Shown here: positions 42,246-53,182 of the stretch, in pieces | How the letters are laid out: each line of letters begins with the position of its first letter | Numbering within the stretch: position 1 is the stretch's first letter | Source: Escherichia phage nepoznato | Length of the DNA: 64,000 nucleotides | Sequence record: NC_052658.1 | Strand: one strand, 5' to 3' | Made by a program: the position numbers and the translations under genes | The notes under the pieces: model-generated | Told to the model about the DNA's origin: nothing | The model's database searches: none | The model's input: the letters and a program-made list of their open reading frames with translations, nothing else

Positions 42246-43190
42246 ATGGGACAAATAATTCTTGACAATCGTAACGGAATCAATTATAGTGTCTGCGATT
42301 TCCATAGGGTAGTGCTGCCTTACTCAAGGCAGTTCTCTTCACAACCTAAACACAACGTTTTCGTTTTTAACGGAGTGCCAACAAAAGGTAAAGAGGGCTT
42401 TTTAGCCCTTAAAAACCTAGGCTTTAAAATGGTTATGGATTTGGATGACTCTTTAGTTATTCCAAAAGGACACATGTTAGAAGGTATTTTTGAATCAGGT
42501 ATTCGTGAACATTTAAAATGGTTTTTAGAGCACAGTGATCTTGTTACAACTACGACACCTGTCTTGCAAGTTGAACTTTCACAATATAATGATAATGTGC
42601 ACATAATCCCTAATGGACTTCCTTACGATGAAGGTCAATTTGTGTTGACCCGTGATCGCTACTCCAAAACTCCATTAGTCTGGGCTGGAAGTGAAACACA
42701 TAAACAAGATTTGGCTATCTTACCCGATTTTGGTAAAGATCTTACAATATGTGGTTTTCGTAGGGATTCTGAAGTTTTAAGTAGTCGTGAATGGTCTTTA
42801 ATCAGAGAAAATGTAGCACCAACTTGTGTTTATGAAGGTGTAAGACCATATGCCAACTACATGGAATCTTACGATGGTCATCAAATCAGTCTTGCACCAT
42901 TGATCGATAACGTGTTTAATAATGCAAAAAGCAATCTTAAAATTCTTGAGGCAGGTGCTAAGGGTTTACCTTTAATCTGCTCTCCTCGTGAGAATTATCA
43001 TACACAAGAGTTTAAAGATTTGTTATTCTTTGCTGAAACACCTTCCGAGTGGAAAGATATTACGGAATACTTATTAAGTGCTCCCGATGTTTGCATGGAG
43101 AAAGGATTAGCATTAGCTAAGTATGTCAGGACTCATTATCACATTGATGTGTTGAATGAGCGTCGTAGACTTTTATTTGAGGAGCTATAA
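42246..43190 (+). CDS. GT-B-like glycosyltransferase, paralog B
   Basis: Shared blocks VWAG...H..DL and NN-KSNLKILEAGAKG-P. Confidence 0.4.
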   Translation: MGQIILDNRNGINYSVCDFHRVVLPYSRQFSSQPKHNVFVFNGVPTKGKEGFLALKNLGFKMVMDLDDSLVIPKGHMLEGIFESGIREHLKWFLEHSDLVTTTTPVLQVELSQYNDNVHIIPNGLPYDEGQFVLTRDRYSKTPLVWAGSETHKQDLAILPDFGKDLTICGFRRDSEVLSSREWSLIRENVAPTCVYEGVRPYANYMESYDGHQISLAPLIDNVFNNAKSNLKILEAGAKGLPLICSPRENYHTQEFKDLLFFAETPSEWKDITEYLLSAPDVCMEKGLALAKYVRTHYHIDVLNERRRLLFEEL

Positions 43191-43468
43191 TGATTAACAC
43201 TTTTGATTTTGAATACACCACTCGTAACGGGAAAGCCTTGGTCGTGGAGGTGGATTACTATTATGAAGAACCTAATCCACTTTCTCGTGAAAGCGATTGG
43301 GATTACCACGGAGGGCTTTTAATTGACGGTATTCGTTTTTATGAAGGATCTACAGAAGTTTTTGAAAAAGATTTAAATGTAACTGTAGCAGAAATTGCTT
43401 TCCAATTTAGAAAGCACATGGAAGAACTAGAAGCAGAATATATGATGGAGACTAACGAACCATTTTAA
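43190..43468 (+). CDS. Hypothetical protein (92 aa)
   Basis: ORF. Confidence 0.55.
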   Translation: MINTFDFEYTTRNGKALVVEVDYYYEEPNPLSRESDWDYHGGLLIDGIRFYEGSTEVFEKDLNVTVAEIAFQFRKHMEELEAEYMMETNEPF

Positions 43469-43480
43469 CAGGAGAACAAA

Positions 43481-45259
43481 GTGTCGCACATTATAACTAA
43501 ATATGGATTTGATGTTGATCTTAGCAAGGAAGGACATACAGGTTGTCCGCGCTGCATGAAAAATGGCAAGGATCGCTCTCGTAATAACCTGATGGTTTAC
43601 GGATTAGATTCTAATGGAGAGCATAAAGGTGCTAAGTGCTTTGCGTGTGAATACACTATTCCTAGCGTAGAATGGTTACGAGAAAATGGTGAAGTTTTAG
43701 AAGAAGAGGAGGAGATTGTGGGTTCGGAATTTAATAAACAGATTCATCGTAAAATTGTTCAAGAAACATCAACCAACCCACGTGGTTATCGAGGCATTAA
43801 AGAAAAAGTTTCATCTTTCTATGGTGTTCGTTATGAATACCGTCAGGAAGGGGATCAGATGGTAGTAGAAAGTTGTTTATATCCAACTACCATCGGTAAA
43901 GAATTGGTTGGTTTTAAGCGTCGTATTCATCCTAAAGATTTCAGTAAACCTATTGGTCAAGTAGGTAAAGATGTAGATCTTTTTGGACAAATTCGTTTTG
44001 CAGACCGTTCTCATACTGTTGTAATTACAGGTGGTGAACACGATGCTCTGGCAGCTTATCAAATGCTATCTGAAAACTTGGACAGTAAATATGAGCTTCC
44101 AGCCGTAGTAAGTGGCACAACTGGTGAAACCAGTATGTATAAACAAGTTCAGGCACAATATCCTTTCTTTGAAAAATTTAAGAAGATTATTGTTTGCATG
44201 GATAACGACAAAGCAGGTAACGAGGCATTTGAAAATATTGTTAAGGTGCTGCCTCGTAACAAAGTCTACCGTATGCAGATGGATCTTAAGGATGCCAATC
44301 AGTATCTGGAAGAAGGTCGTGCAAAAGATTTCGTAAAAGCTTTTTGGAGTGCTCGTCTATACACCCCAGCAGGTGTTTATGCTTCTAATGTCTTGTATGA
44401 AGCTGCATTGGAATGCTTGGAATCCAAGATGATTACCTTGCCTCCTTTTATGCGTGTTGCTGCAAATATGTTGGGTGGTGGTTTAGTAGAGGAAGAGATT
44501 ACAGTCATCCTGGCAAAGACCAGTATCGGTAAAACTTTGATGGTGAACGAGATCACCAAACATATTATTGTTGCACACCCAGAACATACCCTAGGTATTC
44601 TGTCCTTGGAAGCAACTTATAAAAAGTATTCTCGTAACCTGTTATCCTCTTTCCTACACATTCCTCTACACAGGAAAACACCAGAAGAGAAATTTCAAAT
44701 CTTGGAAGAGAATAAAGAAAAAATCCTAGATTTTTACGAAAGAGAAGATGGATCACCACGTTTTTATGTGTGTGATGATCGTGGAGCAGATGTGGAGTCT
44801 ATCAAAGAAAAAGTTTTGGAGATGATCATCTATTTTGGAGTAACAATTCTTGTTATCGACCCTTATTCTGATTTGCTTTCTGGTATGGATGTTCAAGCCC
44901 AGGAAGAGTTAGCAACATGGTTGAAGCGAATCATGAAAGAGTATGCTATAACTATTATCGTCATCTCACACGTTAAGAAGTCAGCTAACGGTGGCAATGA
45001 GCACTTAACAGAGGACGATGCAATGGGTAGTAGTTTCTTGGCTAAAGGTGCTGGTATTACCTTGGCTTTGGAACGAGATAAGGCTGCTGAAGATCCTGTA
45101 GAACGTAATACAACTCATTGCTTTATCCTAAAAAACCGTGAGTTCTCGGAGACTGGTCCAGCAGGGCAGTTTTACTATGACATTAGAACTGCAACTCTTC
45201 ACGACAAAGAGCAGTATTTTAACAACCCTGCTAACTTACCTACGGATAGCAACTACTAA
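43481..45259 (+). CDS. Bifunctional DNA primase-helicase (T7 gp4-like)
   Basis: N-terminal Cys4 zinc site, TOPRIM motifs GGEHD and DNDKAG, Walker A AKTSIGKT. Confidence 0.8.
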   Translation: MSHIITKYGFDVDLSKEGHTGCPRCMKNGKDRSRNNLMVYGLDSNGEHKGAKCFACEYTIPSVEWLRENGEVLEEEEEIVGSEFNKQIHRKIVQETSTNPRGYRGIKEKVSSFYGVRYEYRQEGDQMVVESCLYPTTIGKELVGFKRRIHPKDFSKPIGQVGKDVDLFGQIRFADRSHTVVITGGEHDALAAYQMLSENLDSKYELPAVVSGTTGETSMYKQVQAQYPFFEKFKKIIVCMDNDKAGNEAFENIVKVLPRNKVYRMQMDLKDANQYLEEGRAKDFVKAFWSARLYTPAGVYASNVLYEAALECLESKMITLPPFMRVAANMLGGGLVEEEITVILAKTSIGKTLMVNEITKHIIVAHPEHTLGILSLEATYKKYSRNLLSSFLHIPLHRKTPEEKFQILEENKEKILDFYEREDGSPRFYVCDDRGADVESIKEKVLEMIIYFGVTILVIDPYSDLLSGMDVQAQEELATWLKRIMKEYAITIIVISHVKKSANGGNEHLTEDDAMGSSFLAKGAGITLALERDKAAEDPVERNTTHCFILKNREFSETGPAGQFYYDIRTATLHDKEQYFNNPANLPTDSNY

Positions 45260-45792: not shown

Positions 45793-46587
45793 TTGAGCAA
45801 GTTGAACACACTTGATCAATATTACACTAACCCCGCTTATGCGGGGTTCTTATGTGATAAGATCAAAGAAATTTTTGGAGAGGAAGCTAACTACGTAGAA
45901 CCATCTGCGGGAGAAGGGGCTTTCTCTTCTTGTTTTAAAAACATAACTTCTTTTGATATTGACCCTAAGTTTGAAGATTGTATTGAGGCAGATTTTTTAG
46001 CTCAATCTGTTGAGTCTGTTGGCAGTGTAACTGCTTTTGTCGGTAATCCTCCGTTTGGAAAAAATGCTAGTCTTGCCATTAAGTTCTTTAACCATTGTGC
46101 TGAAATGTTGGATAACGAAGGTGGTATTTGTTTTATCTTGCCTCGCACATTTCAAAAAATCTTTTTTGCACACAAACTAAATCCCCACATGCATCTTCTT
46201 TACGAAGAAGAATGTCCAAAAGGATCTTTTATTCTTCATGGAGAACCTTGGGATGTTCCTTGTGTATTCCAGATATGGATTAAACGCAACGAGAAGCGTT
46301 CTCCCGTTGTTTTAGGAGAAAATCGACTATTCGTATTAGGCAACAGTAAAGACTACGACATAGCCGTTAGGAGAGCGGGAGCAAGTGCAGGTAAAGTGTT
46401 ATCAGAAGAGGATTCTTTATCTGAAGCATCTACCTATTTTTTAAAAGCCTTGACTTCTGATCTTAAAACGCGTATCATTGAGGCTTACCCGTTACTTAAA
46501 GCTGAAGCTAGTAAAACTGCGGGAGTAAGAAGTTTAAGTTTAAAAGAACTTCAGTGGGTTCTGGAGAACATTAGAAAGGAGGAATAG
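45793..46587 (+). CDS. DNA N6-adenine (amino) methyltransferase
   Basis: AdoMet motif EPSAGEGAF; catalytic GNPPFG. Confidence 0.7.
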   Translation: MSKLNTLDQYYTNPAYAGFLCDKIKEIFGEEANYVEPSAGEGAFSSCFKNITSFDIDPKFEDCIEADFLAQSVESVGSVTAFVGNPPFGKNASLAIKFFNHCAEMLDNEGGICFILPRTFQKIFFAHKLNPHMHLLYEEECPKGSFILHGEPWDVPCVFQIWIKRNEKRSPVVLGENRLFVLGNSKDYDIAVRRAGASAGKVLSEEDSLSEASTYFLKALTSDLKTRIIEAYPLLKAEASKTAGVRSLSLKELQWVLENIRKEE

Positions 46588-49500
46588 TGAGTAAGTTTAC
46601 ATGGGATATTGAAGCAAACGGATTGTTGAATAATGATACTATTGATTATTTAGCTAGTCCTTATCGTCTCAAAGACACATTTCAAATGCACTGTATTGTC
46701 TTAGAGAACCATGAAACAGGAGAAATAGTAGCTTTCCACGATGGCCCTAAATACATTTTTGATGGTCGTCCTTATGAAGAGTCAGATGATAAATATACAT
46801 ATGTTCTTAAAGAATATGTGGCGCAAGATTACACACATTTTCAACTAAAAGATTTCCCAGATTTTATTAATCATGAAGGTTATTTTAAAGACAAGCCTGA
46901 ATATTTGGTTGAAATGGCTGTGGCACACAACGGTATCAACTATGACTGGTTGGCTACAAAACTGTTTTATGGATTAGATTACAGTGTTAAATATAACACG
47001 TGGGGTAAAAGCAAGGTAAAACTTATTGACTCCTTAATTTTGAGTAAAGTGTTAAACCCAGATCGAAAGATTGAGGGCAAATCAGGACATAGTTTGGCAG
47101 CACTTTCTCGAAAGGCAGGCGGGGATGTAAAAATAGATTTCCGTAAAGAGATTCCAGAAGAAGATCGATTTAAGACTTTTGCTGCGGATATGCTTTATTA
47201 CTGTATCTATGATAACAAAGCCAACACAAGTGTATATAATTACCTCATGGAAGAATGGGGTGATTATGATAAATGGGAAGGTCCATTTGAACTTGAACAA
47301 CGTGTAGCAGACATTATCACGCGCCAGGAACACCGTGGGTTTGCTTTTAACATGAAGCAAGCAGAAGAGAACCTTGCTTTTTTGGATGCAGAAATGGAAC
47401 GTCTTCGTTTACTCGTTGAGCCTATTTTGCCACCTAAACCAGCAACAAAAGGTTATCTTAAAGCTTTTATTCCGCCTAAATTGCAAATTAAAAAGAACCT
47501 CGAACCAACTAACCATATGATCAATTTTGCTAAAAAACATGATGGTCATTTGGAAGAGAGGGATGGCGATTGGTGGTTAGTTATGTTGGGGAAAGAGTGG
47601 AAACTGCCAGTTGCAGCAGATGAGCCTTTGTGTGATCCTAATATCCCTGCAACATTGAACGATACAACCCATATTAAAAACTGGCTTGTAGGATTAGGTT
47701 GGGTACCGTCTGAATATAAAGATAAAGACTTGACTCTTAAATCTGGCACCAAGATTAAAAAGAGTGAGGAAGAACTTCAGAAAGGTATTCGAGCTTACAT
47801 TGAGCAAACTCTATCTTCTAATTTTTGTCAGGATCGTTGTGATCATCTGGAGTGCACACCGGAAACCTTGGAAAGGAAGATTCAAGAGCGTATAGCAAAA
47901 GGTAAAGGTCGCGGTCTTAAAGTATTGACTAACCCATGTTTTACCAAAGGTCAGGAAAAAGAAATTTGTCCTAACCTGCAAGCTTTGGGTGAGAAATTTC
48001 CTTATGCTACACAGATTGTAGAATACTTAACGTATAAACACCGTAGGAACTCTATTTTAGGTGGTGGTGCCGATTGGGAAGAAGACGAAGAAGATCAAGA
48101 ATACAACAAAGGTTTCTTGGCAGCAGTTCGTGCAGATGGACGTATACCTACGCCAGCGGCTACATGCGATGCAGCAACCTCTCGTATGAAGCATAGGTCT
48201 GTAGCCAATATTCCTCGTGTTACCTCTTTGTTTGGATGGCAGATGCGTAACCTGTTTGGTGTAGAGGTTCCTAAATACTTCCAGATTGGTTATGACTTTG
48301 ATTCATTAGAGGCGAAGATTGAGTCGCATTATACGTGGAGATATGATAATCCTGATCATGCTTACTGTAATGCACTTCTGTTAGAAAAACCAAACGATGT
48401 GCATACTATGATGGCAAAACATATTACTGATATTATTGGACGTAAGTTTGAACGTGGTCCTGCTAAGAGCGTTAAATACGGTTGTGTACCTGTAGATAAT
48501 ACGGAAGTGTTAACAAGAACGGGTTGGAAGAAACGTAAAGATCTTTTTGTAGGGGATGAAGTTTTATCTTATAATACTCACACCGCTCTTTACGAATATA
48601 CCCCTATTCTTAAGCTGTGGGACTATAACGATGCAGAAGTTGTCTCTCTCGGTAACAAGTGGTTCAAAGTAGAAGTTACTAACGATCATATGTGGATTAA
48701 CGCACAGAGAAAAACTATGCGATCAGATGGTAACAATGTTAAGTATATGCAAGTGGAGCGTAGATCTACAGAGGATTTAAACTCGGAGTCAAACATAATT
48801 GCAGCAGGGCGATCTGGTGTGGTGTCTACTCTAACAGTGGAAGAAGGTCGTTTCTTAGGCTGGCTTCTTTCGGATGGCTACTATAAGTGGTCTGGCAAAG
48901 CCAGAAATAAAGTAATGGGTATTACAGTCACGGTAGATCAAGATGAGAAAAAATTCTTAGAAGAAGCACGTGAGGCTGTGGGAGATATCTTCACATTTGA
49001 CGAGTATGTATCTGGAACGATGCATTCATTACGTCCTAATAAGAGTCAGTTTAGGGAATTTTTGACTAAATGTGGCGTTGAAGTGGGTCAAAATAAGCAC
49101 GAAGTGGACTGGTCTACATTAATTGCTAATCAAGGTCAAGCTGTGTTGGAAGCATTCTTAGAGGCATTCTGGATGGCAGATGGTCATAAGCGTCCAAACG
49201 GCAGTCTTGTTATCCGTCAAAAGAAAGGTAAGATTAGCGACGCTGTTTCTTTGGCTATCAATATGACAGGTAATATTGCGTATGGTTCTGTTCAAAAAGA
49301 TGGCATGTTAACGTTGGCAATCAATAACGGACAAACTATTTCAGGACAGAGGTTGACAAAAGCTTTTTCACGAGTAACAGATGTATTCTGTATCTCAACC
49401 AAGAATGAATCTTTTGTTATGCGTCAGAATGGTTTTATCACGTTGACAGGTAACTGCACGTACGGCGCTCAAGCAGACAAGGTTGCTAAAACAATTGGTA

Positions 49501-50156
49501 GCGATAAATACACAGGGCAACTGGTGTTCGATGCTTTCTGGGAAGCTGCATTCCCACTGGCGCGTCTTAAAGAACGTTTAAACGATTTCTGGGTTAAGAC
49601 TGGTAAACAGTATGTTTTGGGTATTGACGGTCGTAAGGTTCCTACTCGTTCTGCTCACGCGATTCTTAACTCTCTGTTCCAAAGTGGTGGGGTTATCTGT
49701 GCTAAACGTGCAATGGTTATTTATGACGACATGATCGAAGAAGAAGGGCTAAGTGTTGACTTCTTTAAAGATGACTGGAAGAATAAAGACTTCGTGCAAC
49801 AAATGATTGCATATCACGATGAAGCCCAGCTTGAAGTTTCTCGTAGCCTTGTAGAATTTAAATGGTTTTCACCTGAATCATTAGGTTGGAAGAAAGTAGA
49901 CGATCCTGAAGAACAAAAGAAAATTGATAAAGAATGCCTTGCTAAAGTTGAAGAATGGAAGCATAATAAGGAAAAAGAGACAGGGCAAATTTGGGCTAAC
50001 ATTCATGAATCTCCCAAAGGTGGATGGTTTACAGCCTATAGTCGGGCAGGTGAACTTGCTGCTTTAGCTGTTACTAAGGCTGGAGAATTTTACAATCTTA
50101 ATGTTCAGCTTACTGCCGGATATGATGTGGGTAACTCCTGGGCGAGCTGCCATTAG
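46587..50156 (+). CDS. Family A DNA polymerase with 3-prime to 5-prime exonuclease domain, interrupted by an intein
   Basis: Exo I DIEANG; motif A DFDSLEAKI; motif B PAKSVKYG/CTYG split by intein; motif C YHDE. Confidence 0.85.
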   Translation: MSKFTWDIEANGLLNNDTIDYLASPYRLKDTFQMHCIVLENHETGEIVAFHDGPKYIFDGRPYEESDDKYTYVLKEYVAQDYTHFQLKDFPDFINHEGYFKDKPEYLVEMAVAHNGINYDWLATKLFYGLDYSVKYNTWGKSKVKLIDSLILSKVLNPDRKIEGKSGHSLAALSRKAGGDVKIDFRKEIPEEDRFKTFAADMLYYCIYDNKANTSVYNYLMEEWGDYDKWEGPFELEQRVADIITRQEHRGFAFNMKQAEENLAFLDAEMERLRLLVEPILPPKPATKGYLKAFIPPKLQIKKNLEPTNHMINFAKKHDGHLEERDGDWWLVMLGKEWKLPVAADEPLCDPNIPATLNDTTHIKNWLVGLGWVPSEYKDKDLTLKSGTKIKKSEEELQKGIRAYIEQTLSSNFCQDRCDHLECTPETLERKIQERIAKGKGRGLKVLTNPCFTKGQEKEICPNLQALGEKFPYATQIVEYLTYKHRRNSILGGGADWEEDEEDQEYNKGFLAAVRADGRIPTPAATCDAATSRMKHRSVANIPRVTSLFGWQMRNLFGVEVPKYFQIGYDFDSLEAKIESHYTWRYDNPDHAYCNALLLEKPNDVHTMMAKHITDIIGRKFERGPAKSVKYGCVPVDNTEVLTRTGWKKRKDLFVGDEVLSYNTHTALYEYTPILKLWDYNDAEVVSLGNKWFKVEVTNDHMWINAQRKTMRSDGNNVKYMQVERRSTEDLNSESNIIAAGRSGVVSTLTVEEGRFLGWLLSDGYYKWSGKARNKVMGITVTVDQDEKKFLEEAREAVGDIFTFDEYVSGTMHSLRPNKSQFREFLTKCGVEVGQNKHEVDWSTLIANQGQAVLEAFLEAFWMADGHKRPNGSLVIRQKKGKISDAVSLAINMTGNIAYGSVQKDGMLTLAINNGQTISGQRLTKAFSRVTDVFCISTKNESFVMRQNGFITLTGNCTYGAQADKVAKTIGSDKYTGQLVFDAFWEAAFPLARLKERLNDFWVKTGKQYVLGIDGRKVPTRSAHAILNSLFQSGGVICAKRAMVIYDDMIEEEGLSVDFFKDDWKNKDFVQQMIAYHDEAQLEVSRSLVEFKWFSPESLGWKKVDDPEEQKKIDKECLAKVEEWKHNKEKETGQIWANIHESPKGGWFTAYSRAGELAALAVTKAGEFYNLNVQLTAGYDVGNSWASCH
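48483..49454 (+). mobile_element. Intein (about 324 aa) with LAGLIDADG homing endonuclease domain, in polymerase motif B
   Basis: Starts CVPVDNTEVLT; LGWLLSDGY and LEAFWMADGH blocks; ends TLTGN before Cys; coordinates approximate. Confidence 0.7.
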
Positions 50157-50573: not shown

Positions 50574-50792
50574 ATGCGTAAATTAGTGAGCTTTAATGTT
50601 TCAATTCTTGTTGATGAACAAAATGAAGATGTTATTAAAGGTCTTGCAAATAAGATTGAAGGTGGAATGACGGAAGCAGAAGTATGGGAAGAATGTGCTC
50701 GACTTTATGAGGAAGGTGTTATTGAGGTCTTGGGGGATGAGATTAATATGGACGATGTTGTAAAAGTAACTGTGGAGCGTATCCATGACTAA
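50574..50792 (+). CDS. Hypothetical acidic protein (72 aa)
   Basis: RBS AAGGAGAAAA. Confidence 0.55.
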   Translation: MRKLVSFNVSILVDEQNEDVIKGLANKIEGGMTEAEVWEECARLYEEGVIEVLGDEINMDDVVKVTVERIHD

Positions 50793-51378
50793 ATCAAAAC
50801 AAATCAATATTGCCAAAGAAATTCTTACCGTATTAAAGATTGCTGATCCTAATTCTGTCTTGGCTGGCGGCGCTGTTCGTGATTGGCGTATTCTTGATAT
50901 TGCTGGACGTGATCTGGATTTTTACACGTCTCTTCCTGCACATCGATCAGAAGAGCAAATACAAGAATTGATTGCATCTGCTTTGATGGGAACTAATGTT
51001 CGTAAATTAGGAAACAAAGAGGCTTCTGACAATTATGAGGGTGTTACTGGTCTTAAACACGTTTTTGAGTTTGAACATGATGGTCAGCTTTGCAACCTTA
51101 TGATTATGGAACCAAGCGTAATGACAACCTTTCTAAATGAGTTTGATCTGTCCATCTGCCAGGCTGCATTTGATGGGAAGGATTGCTATTATTCTAAAGA
51201 TTTTGAAACAACCTTGGAAACAGGGATCTGCTTCTTGCACAAAGATGTTAGAGAAGATGCCAAACACGTTATTAAAATTGCTACACGTTTCCCATATCTT
51301 CGTTTTGTGAAAGAGGTTAAGGTTCCACGTCCACCTCAAGTAGATACCAGATTGGAAGAAGATGATATTCCTTGGTAA
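50785..51378 (+). CDS. Nucleotidyltransferase (CCA-adding/poly(A) polymerase head-domain-like)
   Basis: GGAVRDWRILDIAGRDLDF. Confidence 0.5.
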   Translation: MTKSKQINIAKEILTVLKIADPNSVLAGGAVRDWRILDIAGRDLDFYTSLPAHRSEEQIQELIASALMGTNVRKLGNKEASDNYEGVTGLKHVFEFEHDGQLCNLMIMEPSVMTTFLNEFDLSICQAAFDGKDCYYSKDFETTLETGICFLHKDVREDAKHVIKIATRFPYLRFVKEVKVPRPPQVDTRLEEDDIPW

Positions 51379-51423: not shown

Positions 51424-51816
51424 ATGACTGAACGTTCTAAGATAGCTGTTGAAACTGTTTATGGAAACTACACCAGTTTGACACTAGTTGAGAAAAATGT
51501 TGTAGGTCTTGACAACTCTTTTTATTTTCAAATTTTGGTTATTCAAGGTGGAAACAAGAAGCTAACTGCTCGTGTCGAAACATCTGAAATAATTGAAACC
51601 ACTGTTACAAACAAAGAATTCATTTCACTGCAAGATACAATCCGAAACGTTATAGACGAAGAAGGCAAAGCTGCCACAATTAAACTCGGAGGTTTCCCAG
51701 TGCAAATAGTTCATTTTCCTAATGGTGAAATTGGAGTTGGAATAGGTAAAGGTAAATACCTGTTAGAGCAAGATGATATGGAAAGACTCCGCTCTTTCTG
51801 TGCAAAATTAATGTAA
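51424..51816 (+). CDS. Hypothetical protein (130 aa)
   Basis: ORF. Confidence 0.55.
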   Translation: MTERSKIAVETVYGNYTSLTLVEKNVVGLDNSFYFQILVIQGGNKKLTARVETSEIIETTVTNKEFISLQDTIRNVIDEEGKAATIKLGGFPVQIVHFPNGEIGVGIGKGKYLLEQDDMERLRSFCAKLM

Positions 51817-51832
51817 TATAGAGGAGATAATA

Positions 51833-52720
51833 ATGTCCATAATTAATACTGAAACTGATCGTAAAGGCAAAACCGTAACTTATGCAACTGGTATCGTAGA
51901 CTACGTTAAACTGGATAAATTCGCTGAACCTAAAACTTTTCATTGGGAAGGAAAAACGATTGTTTCAACTCACCGAGCTTCTCTTGTTCTGAAAGAGAAA
52001 GGTGCTAAACCAGAGGAGAAAGGTGTTTGGATTTCTCTTGGTGATATTGAACTGAAAGAAGGTTATGAAAACCTGCAAGTTAAAGAAGGTGATAACTGGA
52101 TCACTATTGAAAAAGGTGTAGAAGTAAGTATTGATATTGATCGCGTTGACAATAAAGGCGGTAAAACTTACTACAATACTAAAAAATCTCGTATTACAGT
52201 ATTGTCTACCGATGGTGTTCAGAAGTCTAACAAATCTTCTGGCAATAAGGGTTCCAACGATGCTGCTCCTAAACAGTCCTATAAAAAACGTGATACTGTA
52301 GGTCTGGAAACTGGTCACGCAGTAAATGGTGCGCTGGAACTGATTCGTAATGGTGTTAAAGGCGATGCTTTTGATATCGCTGGGGTTGTTCAATCTGCGA
52401 CTGTCACGTTGAAATCGGAAATTGCTGAATCTCGTGGCGTTGATATTAATGATTATGATCTTGGGGCAGCTGTTGGTCACGCTATTCTCAATGCTTGTAA
52501 AGACCATACCATTAAGACTGTCTCTGTAGAAGATCTGATTGATTCTGCTCGTAAAGTTCTGGCTCTGTCTGATAAAGTTGCTGCTGCCATTCGTGGTTCC
52601 GCAGAACAACCTAAGAAAGAAGAGAAGAAAGAAGTTAAAAAGCCTGAACCACAACCAGAACCAACTCCAAGCAATCAAGAAGAACCTCCAATGGACTTCG
52701 ATGATAATATTCCTTTTTGA
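51833..52720 (+). CDS. Single-stranded DNA-binding protein-like
   Basis: C-terminal acidic tail ending DFDDNIPF (E. coli SSB ends DDDIPF). Confidence 0.5.
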   Translation: MSIINTETDRKGKTVTYATGIVDYVKLDKFAEPKTFHWEGKTIVSTHRASLVLKEKGAKPEEKGVWISLGDIELKEGYENLQVKEGDNWITIEKGVEVSIDIDRVDNKGGKTYYNTKKSRITVLSTDGVQKSNKSSGNKGSNDAAPKQSYKKRDTVGLETGHAVNGALELIRNGVKGDAFDIAGVVQSATVTLKSEIAESRGVDINDYDLGAAVGHAILNACKDHTIKTVSVEDLIDSARKVLALSDKVAAAIRGSAEQPKKEEKKEVKKPEPQPEPTPSNQEEPPMDFDDNIPF

Positions 52721-53148
52721 TCAGTAAGTTATGCTCGTGTTGTGGGGCTGAAAAGCCCCTCAACATGTTCCAAGTAAGGAAGGCTTCTAAAGATGGCTAT
52801 ACGGCATCCTGTAAAGCTTGCTTAAAAGAACGTGACCGTATACGAGATCAAGACCCTAATCGTAAAGCAGCAAAAGAAAAGTATGTAAAGGGAAAAGGAA
52901 AGGATAAAGCAGACGCGGCTAAAAAACGTTGGCAAGAAAAGAATCCCAAGAAGCGTAGTGTTCACGTTTTAGTTGGCAACGCACTCCGAGATGGAAAGTT
53001 AGTAAAACAACCTTGCCAAGTGTGTGGGTCTGTTGATGTTCATGCTCATCATTGTGATTATGATAAACCGTTAGATGTTCTATGGCTGTGTCCTCTGCAC
53101 CATGAAGCTTGGCATCAAGAACATGGGGAAGGGTTGAACGCTGAATAA
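52717..53148 (+). CDS. HNH endonuclease with N-terminal zinc ribbon; probable TTG start
   Basis: CQVCGS...HAHHCDY...LWLCPLHHEAWH. Confidence 0.65.
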   Translation: MISKLCSCCGAEKPLNMFQVRKASKDGYTASCKACLKERDRIRDQDPNRKAAKEKYVKGKGKDKADAAKKRWQEKNPKKRSVHVLVGNALRDGKLVKQPCQVCGSVDVHAHHCDYDKPLDVLWLCPLHHEAWHQEHGEGLNAE

Positions 53149-53182
53149 AAGAAAGGAGCCAAATGGCTCCTTTTCTTATTTA
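53147..53182. terminator. Bidirectional terminator GGAGCC-AAAT-GGCTCC between convergent genes
   Basis: T-rich flanks on both strands. Confidence 0.7.

Follow-up and report, generated by a model that had tools for sequence, protein, structure and literature searches.

The nucleotidyltransferase gene lies at positions 50785..51378 on the plus strand of the window (the whole 64-kb stretch of DNA that was analysed) and runs from an ATG start to a TAA stop, which is included in these coordinates, to encode a protein of 197 aa. The window comes from a phAPEC8-like E. coli myovirus (Phapecoctavirus, Stephanstirmvirinae) with 97-98% identity to phages ESCO13, ZCKP1 and AV125, and the copies of the gene in Phapecoctavirus genomes are 97-99% identical. 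A GGAG ribosome-binding site (Shine-Dalgarno), read from the sequence, is found on the same strand at 50774..50777, 7 nt 5′ of the ATG. Because the ATG overlaps the stop of the ORF at 50574..50792 (ATGA) and the first two residues, M1-T2, are invariant in the alignment of homologs, the start codon is taken to be correct. The original prediction had described a 197-aa ORF carrying GGAVRD...DxD in a window in which no tRNA genes were seen; the ORF and both motifs are present exactly as described, and ARAGORN finds no tRNA genes across the 64-kb window. Around the gene itself there are no matches to Rfam families and no excess of promoter-like sites. The protein matches PHROG 10174 'nucleotidyltransferase' (E=1e-62) and PHROG 1614 (E=6e-12, aa 4-184), and in related phages it is labelled 'nucleotidyltransferase' or 'putative tRNA nucleotidyl transferase / poly(A) polymerase', so that the interpretation first given to the gene coincides with the usual database label. 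Both the gene and this generic name are already public, and stand-alone proteins of the CCA-head type have been noticed earlier (2la3; PMC7693777).

The gene is part of a single rightward block closed by a bidirectional terminator-like hairpin at 53151..53174. The block begins with a 92-aa protein and continues with a DnaB-like primase/helicase (43481..45259, plus strand; annotated in LR597654, with homologs in a neighbour cluster matching Pfam DnaB_C), ORFs of 143 and 264 aa, a family A DNA polymerase (46587..50156, plus strand) and three small ORFs. From the nucleotidyltransferase onwards, the order is a conserved 130-aa protein (51424..51816), an SSB-like protein (51833..52720, annotated as SSB in GenBank records) and an endonuclease VII/HNH-like ORF of 143 aa (52717..53148, PHROG 2340), which overlaps the end of the SSB-like gene, all on the plus strand. 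The polymerase, four genes upstream of the nucleotidyltransferase, is annotated as DNA polymerase I in relatives and scores 30.8 bits against Pfam DNA_pol_A, under the gathering score of 34.3. Its gene contains an intein-like insert of 324 aa (polymerase aa 633-956; 48483..49454, plus strand) that has Cys as its first residue, ends in ...TGN and is followed by Cys, and the polymerase minus the insert is 98% identical to the insert-free 865-aa polymerase of phAPEC8_ev052. The 130-aa protein (PHROG 16560, of unknown function; neighbour cluster 4, position +1) invariably separates the nucleotidyltransferase from the SSB-like gene in five Stephanstirmvirinae-type lineages, which makes it a possible functional partner of one or the other. 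The hairpin at the end of the block is strong and divides it from converging tail-fibre genes.

The first half of motif A, GGAVRD at aa 28-33 (50866..50883, plus strand), aligns with the GGAVRD of solved CCA-adding enzymes, and the second half, DLD at aa 43-45 (50911..50919, plus strand), would supply two metal-binding carboxylates and aligns with the class II DVD. In an alignment of 121 family members with a mean column identity of just 19%, G28, G29, D43 and D45 are invariant and Q6, A10, A27, A30 (98%), R32 (97%), D33 (91%), W34 (99%), Y84 and K164 are at least 90% conserved, and the motif is therefore not a chance match. The protein has the full family signature (Q6, A10, D21-P22, AGGA[PV]RDW, DLD[FI]Y, Y84, K164 and F169-P170), with V31 replacing the P that is commoner in the family, and conservation of the consensus AGGA[PV]RDW...DLD[FI]Y suggests a working active site. 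Position 95 is variable, with E in 57%, N in 16% and D in 12% of the 121 sequences. A conserved element in the C-terminal helix, [HY]161-x2-K164-x3-[KR]168-F169-P170 (51265..51294, plus strand), is a candidate contact for the nucleotide or its phosphates, with conservation of 97% for K164, 95% for H/Y161, 88% for F169 and 75% for P170. The protein is read as a small nucleotide-adding enzyme of the DNA polymerase beta superfamily that is probably active.

Searched exhaustively with the family profile, 1.84 billion cluster representatives (50% identity clusters) yield 1,049 family clusters at E<=1e-3 and 334 at E<=1e-10. Members are nearly all 175-220 aa long and mostly align from position 1 to about 177, and this uniform size and end-to-end match indicate a coherent stand-alone family rather than a set of truncated CCA-adding enzymes. 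The family appears restricted to viruses, being found almost only there: it occurs in 85 viral contigs, 80 of which were kept as loci, and in 191-194 phage records, and scanning the genomes of 185,579 bacterial and archaeal species, one each, gave 6 matches, all on MAG contigs, with a pattern, [LV]AGGA[PV]RDW, that needs the core motif and would miss divergent members. No functional study of the family came up in the literature searches.

An AlphaFold model built with a deep alignment (pLDDT 92.3, pTM 0.85) defines well a folded catalytic core at aa 1-176 (50785..51312, plus strand), comprising an N-terminal helix (residues 3-20), a mixed beta-sheet and a C-terminal alpha/beta part, and loses confidence across the last ~20 residues. 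The model predicts the head-domain fold of class II CCA-adding and poly(A) enzymes, and the structures nearest to it are CCA-adding, A-adding and poly(A) enzymes rather than an unrelated fold, a better match to which the original prediction had named as grounds for rejection. The proposed check with a head-domain HMM was borne out in position and not in score, as Pfam PolyA_pol matches aa 26-74 with 15.5 bits against a cutoff of 23; in the family as a whole this model reaches E<=0.01 in only 17 of the 121 members. Scores against the NCBIfam CCA models are 12-18 bits, far under the cutoffs of 290-439, and searches with the single protein sequence against PDB, PADLOC and NCBIfam returned nothing usable. 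With the family profile, the match to solved class II enzymes is limited to positions 9-49 (E=0.003). Using head and neck sequences of 1miv, 4wbz and 6ibp rebuilt from printed alignments, hhalign aligns 42 columns covering the N-terminal helix and motif A with 86% probability, and sequence similarity ends after motif A.

The features that follow motif A in the class II enzymes are missing from the family. Motif B (RRD, for ribose recognition) and motif D (EDxxR, the amino-acid template for CTP or ATP) are both invariant in 1miv, 4wbz and 6ibp; the former is absent from the family, where a structurally later segment reads VVxxFxxSICxxW, and the latter has no conserved counterpart by hhalign or conservation. 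The segment REDAKH...RF (aa 156-169) was considered as a motif D and rejected as unsupported by either approach, the positions of E157 and D158 being unconserved in the family (W/D/N and K/G/D, respectively). The neck, body and tail domains that bind tRNA are likewise absent from the family members of 175-220 aa, which compare with 372-580 aa for the solved enzymes, and the statement that the 197-aa protein is too short for a full CCA-adding enzyme (370-580 aa in solved class II enzymes) holds. Compared with the class II enzymes of PDB entries 3aql, 4wby, 3h37, 1miv and 1ou5, the protein is about half-size, belongs to a family that looks virus-restricted, lies in replication modules and, in this phage, carries an SSB-like C-terminal peptide. 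With RRD, EDxxR and both the body and the tail domain missing, it does not qualify as a genuine CCA-adding enzyme; it has the class II catalytic head but lacks the features through which those enzymes select the sugar, the base and the tRNA. A new point is that the protein lacks most of the features that define the class named by its tRNA/poly(A) label, which suggests an over-reach from one shared motif, and the database label 'tRNA nucleotidyltransferase' is probably wrong.

Several other small nucleotidyltransferases resemble the protein to varying degrees. PDB entry 2la3 (NP_344798.1), a stand-alone protein of 191 aa from structural genomics with the name 'CCA-adding enzyme head domain', is bacterial, unlike the family described here, and does not appear among the PDB matches of the family profile, even at E values up to 10. 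Small 'tRNA nucleotidyltransferases' of T7-like phages, including Pectobacterium phages PP47, PP81 and Q19 (PMC7693777), Klebsiella phage fHe-Kpn01 (Gp22, PMC7291057) and, in BFVD, Dickeya phage Ninurta, Pectobacterium phages PP2 and DU_PP_II and Caulobacter phage Cd1, are also stand-alone proteins (165-215 aa) encoded in the DNA-metabolism region of the phage, and have along their entire length the predicted fold of the present protein (Foldseek TM 0.55-0.65, E 1e-6 to 1e-9), whereas their identity to this protein is just 15-19%. No family member is found in KP34, and tblastn with a member from a T7-like gene order matched only Vibrio, Klebsiella and Aeromonas myoviruses and podoviruses. Kinship with the nucleotidyltransferases of KP34 and T7 type, and with it the toxicity of Gp22, was accordingly dropped, since neither tblastn nor the family HMM gave a link, so that the likeness is one of fold and common membership is not established. 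The tRNA-modifying nucleotidyltransferase toxins of the MenT/AbiEii type (DUF1814) are a weaker structural match than the CCA-adding and poly(A) enzymes, and the present family is found in phages, not cells. For the protein, neither a DUF1814-type match nor an adjacent antitoxin-like gene was found, and no defence-system model matched. Linkage of the kind seen for RlaP (RNA-ligase-associated Pol-beta nucleotidyltransferases, PMC7824862) is not apparent either, with no RNA ligase cluster among the recurrent neighbours.

The surroundings of the gene recur across the family. For this survey, the 80 viral loci, whose retrieval relied on the core motif, were given mechanical ORF calls and collapsed to 48 lineages at 70% nucleotidyltransferase identity, and six genes on each side were clustered by BLAST (E<=1e-4) and named by Pfam. 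The family A DNA polymerase cluster is represented in 27 lineages, followed by DnaB-like helicase in 21, 5′-3′ exonuclease in 9 and dCMP deaminase in 3, with two SSB-like clusters and homing-endonuclease-type insertions among the remainder. A polymerase, helicase or exonuclease is found within six genes of the nucleotidyltransferase in 32 of the 48 lineages, always on the same strand. Among contigs of at least 40 kb, 13 of 29 have a polymerase neighbour against ~2.7 expected at random (p about 6e-7), an expectation that assumes one randomly placed polymerase gene per contig. The association is seen in myoviruses of 150 kb, phages of 85-90 kb and podoviruses of 45 kb; about one third of lineages have no replication neighbour. 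In one of the loci (P0011), the gene is accompanied by small early genes, TerC and sugar epimerases, and in Vibrio phage VH-8 it is ~40 kb from the polymerase and helicase in surroundings of small early-type genes. A large family that looks virus-restricted by sequence, and its statistical tie to replication genes, are both new.

Beyond the folded core, a variable low-confidence linker at aa 177-190 (51313..51354, plus strand), delimited by pLDDT and the homolog alignment, leads to an acidic tip, EEDDIPW, at aa 191-197 (51355..51375, plus strand). Mean pLDDT is 72 for residues 181-190 and 55 for residues 191-197, and the linker differs in both sequence and length among homologs of 59-83% identity. 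The ending DDIPW is kept in seven of nine aligned homologs (those of 59-65% identity), is replaced by DDSFPW at the C-terminus of an 83% identical homolog (P0003), and has no equivalent in the two most distant aligned homologs (31-33% identity). The tip resembles the bacterial SSB tip DDDIPF, from which it differs just by E for D and W for F. T7 gp4 has a tail similar to that of T7 gp2.5. Like these two tails and that of E. coli SSB, the tail of the nucleotidyltransferase has a disordered linker and, after it, an acidic peptide whose last residue is aromatic; unlike them, it sits on an enzyme and not on an ssDNA-binding protein or helicase. Tails of this kind serve to recruit partners to the replisome: in E. 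coli, the DDDIPF tip of SSB mediates contacts with genome-maintenance proteins (PMC5928155), and in T7, gp2.5 contacts the polymerase and helicase/primase through its acidic tail and terminal Phe (bioRxiv 10.64898/2026.02.22.705581).

In the window, endings of the form DD(x)IP[FW] are confined to the nucleotidyltransferase and its SSB-like neighbour. The C-terminus of the latter, EPPMDFDDNIPF, aligns near-exactly with the bacterial SSB tip EPPMDFDDDIPF (PDB 7f2n and 1eqq). Its PHROG SSB matches are confined to aa 247-295, it has no Pfam OB-fold match, and its first ~250 residues match no OB-fold or SSB model; one possibility is a non-canonical ssDNA-binding protein in which the interaction code of the host SSB has been borrowed. 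The 92-aa protein at 43190..43468, directly upstream of the primase/helicase, ends in ...YMMETNEPF, with an acidic Phe-terminated tail that is kept in distant relatives (METNESF, loci L007 and L009), and is a third tail-bearing protein within the replication block.

Across the 48 lineages, acidic base-free tails with an aromatic end are found in 17 of 519 neighbour proteins, of which six are DnaB-like helicases, six are SSB-like, two are copies of a small protein encoded immediately upstream of the helicase and three are others. In the nucleotidyltransferase family they occur in 18 of 156 representatives, or about 10 of 147 independent lineages (~7%), with DDIPW in three separate groups and SDDDF, WDEEF, FSDEW and WETPF as further examples. 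Compared with non-replisome neighbours (3 of 484), the nucleotidyltransferase lineages are enriched in such tails (odds ratio 11.7, p=5e-5). The tail does not characterise the family but is an addition in particular lineages, and at ~7% of lineages it cannot explain the general function of the family. Where present, it would by analogy be the kind of peptide by which replisome proteins find each other, and a putative replisome-type docking tail in some lineages of such an enzyme is also new.

Taken together, the data are tentatively read as those of a head-only nucleotidyltransferase that is active, needs no template and operates together with family A polymerase phage replication, in this phage probably tethered through an SSB-tip-like peptide and with a nucleic-acid 3′ end as its likely acceptor. 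In this mechanism, the GGAVRD loop would hold the triphosphate of the incoming nucleotide while D43, D45 and a third ligand, perhaps E95, bind two metal ions, and the nucleotide monophosphate would be transferred onto a 3′-hydroxyl with no template. The enzyme would partner the phage family A polymerase replication machinery, with EEDDIPW docking the mildly acidic protein onto whatever reads the tip of the SSB-like neighbour and thereby placing it at the 3′ ends of primers or DNA in intermediates of replication or repair. In its most specific form, this reading makes the family an unrecognised accessory of family A polymerase replisomes, a terminal transferase editing primer or DNA 3′ ends in replication or end repair, which is possible but fairly unlikely; the same degree of doubt attaches to its tethering by an SSB-tip-like peptide, which would apply in some lineages only. 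Action on the short RNA primers of T7-type primase-helicases is a more speculative variant. Against a replisome role, gene proximity is guilt by association and host-takeover genes also occupy phage replication blocks; at the level of sequence, the third catalytic carboxylate is variable and the 'SSB' neighbour is unrecognisable as an OB-fold protein. We know of no phage replisome that requires a template-independent nucleotidyltransferase.

An unlikely alternative in which the acceptor is tRNA would make the protein a minimal 3′-end repair enzyme that restores A76 or CCA on host or phage tRNAs that are trimmed or damaged in the course of infection, by host exonucleases or defence toxins for instance. 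The relationship to CCA-adding, A-adding and poly(A) enzymes and the class II type of motif A are in keeping with this, as are the full-length CCA-adding repair enzymes of jumbo phages (PMC7824862); set against them are the absence of motifs B and D and of the body and tail domains, and CCA-model scores in Pfam and NCBIfam that fall far under threshold. The phage type does have tRNA genes and a candidate RNA repair system: the 98% identical phage ZCKP1 encodes 10 tRNAs elsewhere in its genome together with an RNA ligase/phosphoesterase pair. However, CCA is encoded in 10 of the 10 tRNA genes, so that maturation of the phage tRNAs is independent of CCA synthesis, the host has its own Cca, and the ligase/phosphoesterase pair (32.8-34.3 kb) and the nucleotidyltransferase (83.6-84.2 kb) do not adjoin but are ~50 kb apart. 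Among Vibrio phages that carry a family member, VH-8 (87 kb) encodes two tRNAs and 1.235.O (47 kb, Zobellviridae) none. tRNA genes lie within 8 kb of the nucleotidyltransferase in 7 of 48 lineages, compared with replication genes near it in 32 of 48. The core is also mildly acidic (pI 5.6, family median 6.2), which is unusual for a free-standing tRNA binder. Of the original reading, tRNA 3′-end repair or RNA modification, the catalytic head is real and the positive grounds for the tRNA label have been removed. A link to DARNA, a tRNA-cleaving defence triggered by SSB, was also considered and dropped; DARNA cuts anticodon loops, not CCA ends, and therefore lends no support to CCA repair.

The tRNA genes that do lie near the nucleotidyltransferase include tRNA-Arg in all seven such lineages (L022, L023, L030, L039, L063, L083 and L085), and in VH-8 tRNA-Arg(TCT) and tRNA-Met are ~5.4 kb from it. 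The recurrence of tRNA-Arg may merely reflect its commonness in phages.

The acceptor could instead not be a nucleic-acid end at all but, for example, a small molecule, a nucleotide (yielding a signal or decoy) or a protein side chain, with a role in nucleotide-pool control or counter-defence, and this is considered improbable. Tailing of RNA is a decidedly improbable further rival, in which a mini poly(A)-polymerase-like enzyme would mark host or regulatory RNAs for decay and thereby serve nucleotide supply for the synthesis of phage DNA or control replication through RNA turnover, much as E. coli PAP I (pcnB) controls ColE1 plasmid replication. The RNA-binding C-terminal regions of PAP I are missing from the protein, its acidic core argues against free RNA binding, and the SSB-like tail suggests partners on the DNA side. 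The one experimental result close to the family concerns Gp22 of Klebsiella phage fHe-Kpn01, a 182-aa CCA-head-like protein that is toxic in E. coli (PMC7291057) but was not linked to the family by tblastn or the family HMM. That the protein is a catalytically dead structural or regulatory subunit, for example a decoy filling SSB-tip pockets on host proteins, is highly improbable: the tail closely mimics the host SSB tip and the third carboxylate position varies, but invariance of GG and DxD in 121 very divergent sequences is hard to explain without catalysis and the tail is absent from most family members.

The choice among these functions bears on the many genomes, numbering hundreds among the phages, in which the gene carries the label 'tRNA nucleotidyltransferase / poly(A) polymerase'. 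Should the enzyme be linked to the replisome, template-independent nucleotide addition would be a new activity in the well-studied T7-type replication toolkit, and the SSB-tip docking code would be reused for enzyme recruitment. As a reagent, too, a terminal transferase of 176 aa could be of use. If the protein instead proved to be a truly minimal enzyme of tRNA-end repair, the small amount of protein that this reaction needs would become apparent.

A few family members depart from the usual size. ICP1 phages encode a shortened member of ~137 aa whose match is confined to aa 4-127 of the protein, so that the C-terminal third of the domain is missing (ORF223 of Vibrio phage ICP1_2012_A, L005 4956..5375); this may be a degraded or split gene. 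Other members (P0077, P0071 and P0091, and also at loci L043, L046 and L055) have an N-terminal extension of 90-210 aa fused to the nucleotidyltransferase. These extensions have no Pfam match, and the longer members thus give no functional clue; that of P0077 resembles two copies of one small domain with the motif KIRV...GY.W...YF..H..EY.
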